Of a stretch of 64,000 bases of DNA, positions 2,749 to 2,835 are shown piece by piece. The notes under the pieces were generated by a model. The model had not been told where the DNA came from. It was given only the letters and a program-made list of their open reading frames with translations, and ran no database searches. The number at the start of each line of letters is the position of its first letter. Position 1 is the stretch's first letter. Made by a program: the position numbers and the translations under genes. Source of the stretch: a phage. The stretch lies in the NCBI GenBank assembly GCA_017864995.1, contig GCA_017864995.1_4097.1, one strand, 5' to 3'.

Positions 2749-2835
2749 CAAAAAGCGGCATCGCAAGGTGCGAGGTGAAACTTCCGATTTCCACCGCTGG
2801 TCGATTCGATTTCGACATGCCGCTCAAAATTTACA

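Follow-up and report, generated by a model that had tools for sequence, protein, structure and literature searches.

A compact tRNA-Gly(UCC)-like gene with a reduced D arm, and a rearranged tRNA-Arg(UCU)-like gene, in the tRNA cluster of Asteriusvirus phages

Results

A 70-nt element with the anatomy of a compact tRNA-Gly(UCC)

The 64,000-nt stretch of phage DNA analysed here (contig GCA_017864995.1_4097.1; 'the window') carries, at positions 2755-2824 of its + strand, a 70-nt element that runs from G1 to a discriminator U73 and is laid out as a compact tRNA-Gly(UCC). We conclude that the element is very probably a tRNA-Gly-derived RNA gene under selection, and its sequence features lead us to favour, on balance, a working tRNA-Gly(UCC) with a structurally non-canonical, compact core. 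The window is close kin to two Escherichia jumbo phages of the genus Asteriusvirus, fEgEco12 (99.2% identity over 2 kb) and BF17 (98.8% over the same length), and its first 8 kb hold a tRNA cluster in which ARAGORN calls Ser(tga), Ser(gct), Met, Asn and two Thr tRNAs. The limits of the element follow from ARAGORN run at relaxed thresholds, from the self-match of a covariance model (R1) built from the window copy and that of phage A4, and from conservation. A first-pass annotation of the window had described it as a structured element between two genes that was not a tRNA by hand-folding. Since the element has a canonical T arm, the anticodon loop CUUCCGA, a 7-bp acceptor stem, a discriminator U and a relaxed-threshold call of tRNA-Gly(tcc), this last verdict was wrong in substance, even though formal tRNA detectors do fail on it.

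Read from 5' to 3', the element begins with the acceptor strand GCGGCAU (2755-2761), in which G1, C2 and G3 belong to glycyl-tRNA synthetase (GlyRS) identity pairs, and which forms 7 bp with the 3' strand AUGCCGC (2817-2823); the complementarity of these two strands, noted in the first-pass annotation as a closing stem, is perfect. With no 8/9 linker after the acceptor strand, there follows what we read as a reduced D arm, CGCA-AGG-UGCG (2762-2772), with a 4-bp stem and a 3-nt loop containing GG. A single nucleotide, A2773, stands between this hairpin and the anticodon arm GGUGAAA/CUUCCGA/UUUC-C-ACC (2774-2795), where both the ARAGORN drawing and the evaluation of the fold place C2792 as a bulge on the 3' side. 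The 7-nt anticodon loop CUUCCGA (2781-2787) presents the anticodon UCC (2783-2785; Gly, reading GGA and GGG) flanked by C32, U33, G37 and A38, on a stem that can be counted as 4 bp plus a U.C mismatch or as 7 bp with the bulged C. The variable region is GCUG (2796-2799), or the 7-nt ACCGCUG if the anticodon stem is taken as 4-5 bp. The T arm GUCGA-UUCGAUU-UCGAC (2800-2816), with its canonical TPsiC-type loop, abuts the acceptor stem's 3' strand, and the discriminator U73 is followed by the trailer CAAAA (2824-2829), which is kept in A4; CCA is not encoded.

The acceptor stem with its discriminator and the T arm, a 5-bp stem with a UUCRANY loop, are thus those of a tRNA. The D arm is not: in place of a U8/N9 linker, a 3-4-bp stem and a 7-11-nt loop with A14 and G18G19, we find only 11-13 nt between the acceptor and anticodon stems. 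Aligned with canonical tRNA-Gly(UCC), the element has ~4-5 nt fewer at positions 8-12 and 3 nt more after the anticodon arm. Since its D arm and its scores against curated thresholds both fall short, the element is not an ordinary member of the tRNA family; we class it as a variant of tRNA-Gly(UCC).

Folding, composition and level of chance

The 69-nt string quoted in the first-pass annotation occurs once in the window, at 2755-2823, with 0 mismatches, and its description as G/C-rich is borne out: the 70 nt from 2754 contain 57% G+C versus 35% for the window as a whole, and the G+C peak at the element ranks second in 64 kb (70-nt windows). RNA folding, which the annotation had proposed as a check, yields -26.5 kcal/mol with z = -2.6, moderately better than shuffled sequences, 2 of 200 of which fold equally well. 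The acceptor and T stems are near-certain (pairing probability of 0.99 for acceptor pairs 1:69 and 4:66, and 0.97-1.0 for the T-arm pairs), while the D hairpin and the extended anticodon stem reach ~0.55. The minimum free energy (MFE) structure is a three-way junction with a 10-nt loop that draws on the second copy of a repeated GGUG. The string AGGUG is present both at 2766-2770 and at 2773-2777, and CACC at 2792-2795 can pair with it in two registers, giving either the cloverleaf-like or the three-way-junction fold; this two-register pairing could be a structural switch or mere noise.

The closing stem by itself is at chance level, as the window holds 193 perfect 7-bp inverted repeats with a loop of 45-65 nt. 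Only six of these 193 have at least 5 G/C, two of which are the element and two true tRNAs. A more demanding combination, in which a perfect 5-bp stem with a TTCRANY loop abuts a 7-nt strand that has a perfect complement upstream, is found five times in the 64 kb: these are four annotated tRNAs and the element. It is this combination of features, and not the closing stem, that goes beyond chance.

Two other readings of the locus were rejected. The minus strand folds at -29.6 kcal/mol (z = -2.6), as expected of a reverse complement, lacks the tRNA loop motifs and gives only a poor 'tRNA-Arg' call with ARAGORN at -ps70. As for protein-coding capacity, only ORFs of 32-39 aa with TTG or GTG starts overlap the element, and WPEC3 and WPEC5 have a 'hypothetical protein' annotation across it that is probably spurious.

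Relaxed tRNA detection and a complete glycine identity set

With the threshold lowered to -ps80, ARAGORN reports tRNA-Gly(tcc) at the element, and in its metazoan-mitochondrial mode a 'D-loop mtRNA-Gly(tcc)'. An Rfam scan, another check proposed in the first-pass annotation, gave tRNA-Sec (RF01852) as the sole match (18.9 bits, E = 0.08, positions 2754-2824, in a 101-nt search). Standard tRNA finders miss the element because its D arm is shrunken. Furthermore, R1 applied to ~0.9 Mb of phage tRNA loci gives as its best non-self matches canonical tRNA-Gly(UCC) genes (41-22 bits), which have the GCGG..AU acceptor start, the UUCGAUU loop and U73 in common with the element.

The E. coli glycine identity set consists of U73, G1-C72, C2-G71, C35 and C36 (PMC9976931). 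All five are present in the element, as U2824, G2755:C2823, C2756:G2822, C2784 and C2785. Among glycine codons in the ORFs of the window, GGA makes up 22% and GGG 12% (34% together). In E. coli the GGA codon is a rare one, and a tRNA-Gly(UCC) that serves it is found in AT-rich phages such as T4.

The element has the same kind of 3' end (U, then CAAAA) as the window's tRNA-Asn (G, then CAAAAA), first tRNA-Thr (A, then CAAAT) and second tRNA-Thr (A, then CAAAA), while the other tRNAs of the window encode CCA. Each of the eight tRNA or tRNA-like genes in the cluster finishes with N73 and then CCA(A/T) or CAAA, half of them without a full CCA (N73 3' ends at 2824-2829, 3748-3752, 3834-3838, 5967-5971, 6200-6204, 6279-6283, 7653-7657 and 7733-7737), which looks like a common 3'-processing context.

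The element is invariant where its flanks vary, and changes in relatives keep its pairing

A blastn search with a 75-nt query against 50,697 phage records (E<=10) found the element in 11 GenBank phages, all of them Asteriusvirus, and in ten of these it is 100% identical over 74-75 nt; no homologue beyond these 11 records was found among the 50,697. In an alignment of six genomes that extends 300 nt to either side, none of the 70 columns of the element varies, versus 112 of 616 in the flanks (18%; Fisher p = 3e-6). The block 2751-2828 is the sole place in that alignment, coding sequence included, where 70 nt in a row are without variation, and it agrees well with the coordinates (2755-2830) that the first-pass annotation gave for its structured ~70-nt element. 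The element is conserved more strictly than the adjacent protein genes.

Conservation and covariation in relatives, which the first-pass annotation had named among its tests, were found, and compensatory changes are carried by both A4 and Escherichia virus TH47. The A4 copy differs at three places and keeps pairing at all of them: G49:C65 at the base of the T stem becomes U:A, and the change C2795U turns a G:C pair of the anticodon stem into G:U. Similarity between A4 and the window starts exactly at G1 (2755); the upstream context in A4 is unrelated, and the element stands there 44 nt before a tRNA-Ser. When window, A4 and TH47 copies are aligned by fitting to the model, 97% of the cells are paired and 10 of 23 pairs have changed on both sides, including two in the D hairpin, acceptor pairs 2 and 5 (in TH47) and four of the five T-arm pairs (across window, A4 and TH47), a pattern of pairing that is consistent across all four helices.

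Scans with patterns specific to the element, two of IMG/VR and one of metagenomes, returned nothing. A looser pattern applied to IMG/VR and metagenomes gave mostly chance matches, together with three canonical tRNA-Gly(UCC) genes with G37 and no new compact copy. Within the window, neither an exact search that allowed up to 3 mismatches nor R1 found a paralogue.

A divergent compact version in TH47 and four Gly(UCC) genes in one genus

TH47 (MT446416.1, L129:4607-4674) carries a 68-nt tRNA-Gly(UCC)-like gene that repeats the compact layout of the element at ~45% sequence divergence; R1 scores it at 31.5 bits, ARAGORN misses it at default settings and calls it tRNA-Gly(tcc) at -ps90, and it occurs in the TH47 record only. 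As in the element, there are 19 nt from the acceptor strand to C32 (23 in canonical relatives), the D hairpin abuts the acceptor stem and has a GG loop, the extended anticodon stem contains a bulged C, the loop is CUUCCGA and position 73 is U. The two differ in that TH47 has A:U and not C:G at pair 2:71, a T arm CGGGG-UUCGACU-CCCCG with the canonical G53:C61, a weak, A/U-rich D hairpin (AUAG-UGG-UUUU) and the trailer AUGCG.

A survey of Gly(UCC) genes in the genus, covering the records counted here, distinguishes four versions: version A, the canonical 121Q type (23 records); version B, a canonical glyT/RaK2-like type (A4, BAU.Micro_ELP-22, Turkey5 and JNE01); version C, the element (11 records); and version D, that of TH47 (one record). 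A4 combines B with C and BAU.Micro_ELP-22 combines A with B, whereas the ten phages of the window's clade have C only, and a blastn search found neither canonical type in these ten element-bearing phages. Mutual exclusivity of the element and a canonical tRNA-Gly, true for ten phages, is broken by A4 and serves as supporting evidence only. The published tRNA list of fEgEco12, obtained with tRNAscan, comprises six tRNAs (two Ser, Met, Asn and two Thr) and no Gly (PMC13070987); for BF17 six tRNAs are reported with ARAGORN, as a number only (PMC10059673).

Canonical tRNA-Gly(UCC) genes (121Q-type, the glyT/RaK2-like gene of A4, and those of IMG/VR) resemble the element in the GCGG..AU acceptor start, the discriminator U, the UUCGAUU T loop, the anticodon loop CUUCC(G/A)A and the position in the phage tRNA cluster. 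They differ in possessing a U8/N9 linker and a larger D loop, where the element has an extended, bulged anticodon stem and A53:U61. With the 121Q type the element also has in common the 10-nt ACUUCCGAUU and the trailer UCAAAA; this loop string, which includes G37, is common to versions A, C and D, so that three Gly versions of the genus, different in other respects, have one and the same anticodon loop. We considered derivation of the element from a 121Q-type or glyT-like gene and rejected it, as loops and ends are common and the alignment points to no clear parent.

The canonical glyT/RaK2-like tRNA-Gly(tcc) of A4 (ON286972.1, L003:3599-3674) encodes CCA and is detected by ARAGORN, and it is unannotated in GenBank. 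It is preceded by a promoter cassette that is also found in the window, where near-identical copies, TTGACTAAATAGTTCAGTACTG(A)TATAAT, stand at 4776-4803 and 5087-5115, and also at 4355-4382, before successive small genes; at the equivalent spot of the window, after the 4776-4803 promoter, a small ORF takes the place of the tRNA-Gly. Metagenomes and IMG/VR also hold canonical tRNA-Gly(UCC) genes (in the regions L169:4851 and L269:1011, and on the minus strand of L142) with G37, the acceptor GCGGCAG and a T arm UGGGG-UUCGACU-CCCCA; these genes mix traits of the TH47 version with those of the window element and are plausible canonical relatives of both.

Genomic context of the element

In line with the placement between a gene end and a promoter given in the first-pass annotation, the upstream ORF stops at 2748 and a sigma-70-type promoter of the next transcription unit lies at 2836-2863 on the + strand (12/12 match, TTGACA-16-TGnTATAAT with the TG of an extended -10), a neighbour that falls outside the RNA. 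The upstream ORF is a small gene of 70 aa (2536-2748, +) of family phrog_25670, function unknown, and a candidate promoter with a 10/12 match lies at 2189-2217 upstream of the small-ORF operon. From this layout we infer that the element is co-transcribed at the 3' end of the upstream small gene's transcript. The annotation's statement that it is not a simple terminator also stands: the stem is followed by TCAAAATTTAC and no T-run, and a terminator scan reports no terminator-like site in 2755-2835.

The proteins encoded on either side belong to PHROG families of unknown function and are uninformative. The small genes flanking the Gly locus (phrog_10970 and phrog_25670, at 2355-2525 and 2536-2748 of the window) are duplicated and reshuffled between Asteriusvirus clades. 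Phage E9.1 (L001:1856-2631) has a canonical tRNA-Gly upstream of a phrog_25670-like gene, and the window has the compact element downstream of its phrog_25670 gene.

A rearranged tRNA-Arg(UCU)-like gene in the same cluster

Directly after tRNA-Ser(tga), the window contains a second tRNA-like gene, Arg(UCU), at 3756-3834 (+) with CCA at 3835-3837. ARAGORN makes no call for it, and Rfam scores it at 32.6 bits by fitting it as a D-arm-less tRNA with a 20-nt variable region. This family is found by blastn in 685 phage records, including Asteriusvirus, Felix O1/wV8-type phages, ~109 kb Klebsiella phages and the Salmonella jumbo phage 7t3, where its annotation varies between none, tRNA-Leu, tRNA-OTHER and tRNA-TERM; pattern scans add >120 IMG/VR contigs and ~20 contigs of metagenome-assembled genomes (MAGs) from very diverse phyla. 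The phages ph0011 and UE-S1 have a canonical tRNA-Arg(tct) at the same spot.

We parsed 52 distinct sequences by sequence anchors, independently of pairing. The order of parts is the 5' acceptor strand, UA, a 4-nt segment X (3765-3768 in the window), 1 nt, the anticodon hairpin with the loop CUUCUAA (3775-3781), a linker, a 4-nt segment X' (3795-3798), AAYUGGA (AACUGGA in the window, 3799-3805), a linker, the T arm (3810-3826), the 3' acceptor strand, an A/G discriminator and often CCA. X and X' are complementary: pair 2 is paired in 100% of the sequences (AT 16, CG 21, GC 9, TA 5, TG 1) and pair 3 in 96%, and 140 of 156 X:X' cells are paired, where 2000 shuffles average 82 and never exceed 102. 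RNAalifold, given 46 sequences in a plain alignment made with MAFFT, independently arrives at this structure, with a 3-bp helix around the anticodon hairpin (columns 11-13 with 40-42) and compensatory changes in 18 of its 20 pairs. In the overall pair count 97.4% of the cells are paired, versus 63.7% in shuffles and 35-47% with slid partners.

X' together with AAYUGGA resembles what we take to be positions 10-20 of a T4-type tRNA-Arg (for example GUGUAAUGGA). Judging from the sequences, the Arg(UCU) genes seem to have retained both D-stem strands and the D loop, with the order of segments 10-21 and 22-48 swapped. The A that corresponds to A20 is present in 50 of the 52 sequences; A20 is a determinant for arginyl-tRNA synthetase, along with C35, U36 and A/G73 (PMC9976931).

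Discussion

In this study we have described a 70-nt RNA gene of Asteriusvirus phages that combines an intact acceptor stem, T arm, anticodon loop and glycine identity set with a strongly reduced D arm. If it works as a tRNA, the following route can be proposed. The element would be transcribed rightward with the upstream small-ORF operon and cut by RNase P 5' of G2755, through recognition of the minihelix formed by acceptor stem and T arm; the CAAAA trailer would be trimmed and CCA completed by the host nucleotidyltransferase, as must also be the case for the phage's tRNA-Asn and tRNA-Thr with their trailers of the same type. Charging by E. coli GlyRS could then proceed through G1:C72, C2:G71, U73, C35 and C36, and the charged tRNA would decode GGA and GGG.

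Several observations weigh against a working tRNA. ARAGORN makes no call at the element either at default settings or with -ps, the tRNA-Sec score of 18.9 bits lies far below the gathering score of 47, the tRNA family RF00005 gives no match at E<=10 in a 12-kb search, and the published tRNAscan and ARAGORN runs on close relatives contain no call for the element. The cloverleaf-like fold, at -24.3 kcal/mol, is 1.1 kcal/mol worse than the MFE structure (-25.4). The element is without U8, A14, A21 and a normal D loop, A53:U61 replaces the near-universal G53:C61, the anticodon arm contains a U27.C43 mismatch or bulge, and position 37 is G. A4 holds a canonical tRNA-Gly(UCC) besides the element, which is therefore not the sole Gly tRNA everywhere. 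Finally, the comparative depth is thin, with three distinct sequences from one genus, and the TH47 sequence enters by an alignment fitted to the model, its homology being inferred.

A compact core of this kind has precedents among working tRNAs. In the tRNAPyl of Methanomethylophilus alvus the D stem directly adjoins the acceptor stem, the D loop is 4 nt long and one unpaired 3' nucleotide interrupts the 6-bp anticodon stem; mt-tRNASer(UCN) has a similarly compact core while keeping G18G19/TPsiC and the L-shape (PMC7609411, a review of non-canonical tRNAs in which phages are not mentioned). The element resembles these tRNAs in the lack of a linker (0-1 nt in the group), the tiny D loop and the long anticodon stem, M. 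alvus tRNAPyl also in the unpaired 3' nucleotide of that stem, and mammalian mt-tRNASer(UCN) also in the GG of its D loop and the TPsiC-type T loop. It is unlike both in identity (UCC/Gly with U73, as against CUA/Pyl or Ser) and in setting, a coliphage served by E. coli GlyRS; moreover, compact-core tRNAs have a 3-nt variable region versus 4-7 nt in the element, and the resemblance is one of architecture only, with no sequence homology. Membership of tRNAPyl itself was rejected, the compact core being present with anticodon UCC and not CUA, U73 and not G73, and a variable region of at least 4 nt and not 3. With tRNA-Sec (RF01852) the element has in common a long D stem, a tiny D loop and the stacking of acceptor stem on T arm, and here too membership was rejected, on account of its 7/5 and not 8/5 (13-bp) geometry, a variable region of 4-7 nt and the anticodon UCC in place of UCA.

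A parallel within the window is the Arg(UCU) gene. Both genes belong to the same cluster, are missed or mislabelled by tRNA finders, possess an intact anticodon loop and cognate identity elements, and have a canonical tRNA at the same spot in sister phages. They differ in that the Arg(UCU) family places its covarying D stem of 3-4 bp around the anticodon arm with the D-loop motif 3' of it and is very widespread, while the element keeps the conventional order of parts and has a narrow distribution. We found no description of either non-canonical phage tRNA in the searchable literature, nor of the element in annotated records.

The strongest alternative to a working tRNA-Gly is a tRNA-like RNA that is processed and does not decode. 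It could act as a decoy or sponge for a host factor that targets tRNA-Gly or the anticodon loop of tRNA-Gly (an anticodon nuclease, for instance, or a toxin that acetylates Gly-tRNA), or as RNase P 'punctuation' that also stabilises the 3' end of the upstream mRNA. We consider this doubtful. In its favour, the part that folds most confidently is the minihelix of acceptor stem and T arm required by RNase P and the CCA-adding enzyme, and the core deviates from the canonical tRNA at several places (missing U8 and A14, A53:U61, G37 and the competing fold). The position of the element at the very end of a transcription unit, directly before a strong promoter, would suit such a role, as would the additional presence of a canonical tRNA-Gly(UCC) in A4. 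U73 and G71, which together specify recognition of Gly-tRNAGly by the toxin TacT (PMC9976931), are likewise both present. A pure processing signal, however, would have no need of an intact 7-nt anticodon loop with UCC, U33, C35 and C36, and it would be surprising to find that loop identical in three otherwise different Gly versions, or the element specifically in phages with no other tRNA-Gly.

Could the element instead be a decaying tRNA-Gly pseudogene, a functionless relic with a deletion of ~4 nt in the D arm? The ~4-5 nt missing at positions 8-12 relative to canonical tRNA-Gly(UCC), the failure of standard detectors and the narrow distribution (11 GenBank phages, and nothing in the IMG/VR and metagenome scans) would fit such a history. 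Against it stand the 0 substitutions in 70 nt across six genomes whose flanks, coding sequence included, are 18% variable; the changes in A4, all of them compensatory or wobble-compatible; and the persistence of the element in A4 despite a replaced upstream neighbourhood. Furthermore, the D region still forms a perfect, G+C-rich hairpin of 4-5 bp, and TH47 builds the same geometry from other bases. A relic is therefore unlikely.

Least credible is a signal at the DNA level or otherwise unrelated to tRNA (a palindrome bound by protein, a terminator or attenuator, or a generic RNase site), which takes in the protein-binding site and RNase signal proposed in the first-pass annotation, since, for all that a gene end and a strong promoter flank the element and its closing inverted repeat is conspicuous, there is no T-run or terminator-like site, the UUCGAUU T loop and U33 can be read on the + strand only, the compensatory changes keep pairing and not sequence, and the element behaves in A4 as a portable, gene-like unit. 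Roles in protein binding or as an RNase signal are possible and less specific than the sequence evidence; processing by RNase P is itself to be expected.

To our knowledge, bacterial translation is generally taken to use canonical cloverleaf tRNAs only, tRNA-Sec and tRNAPyl excepted, and the tools used for phage tRNA inventories assume as much. If the element is functional, the tally of six tRNAs without a Gly, listed for fEgEco12 and given as a count for phages of the BF17 type, is incomplete, and E. coli GlyRS, EF-Tu and the ribosome accept a natural compact-core tRNA-Gly, which would bear on the rules that relate tRNA structure to function and on the design of orthogonal and minimal tRNAs. 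The presence in one genus of four Gly(UCC) versions, two of them with shrunken D arms, would then speak of fast turnover and of selection on tRNA shape, for which host defences that cleave or modify tRNAs are a candidate cause. The argument holds equally for the rearranged tRNA-Arg(UCU) family, where the comparative support is much stronger. More speculatively, enterobacterial and other phages may routinely carry working tRNAs with non-cloverleaf cores that are invisible to annotation; the two in the window might be charged by host enzymes and used by the ribosome to decode the rare codons GGA and AGA, with cores adapted to escape tRNA-targeting defences or the phage's own depletion of host tRNAs.

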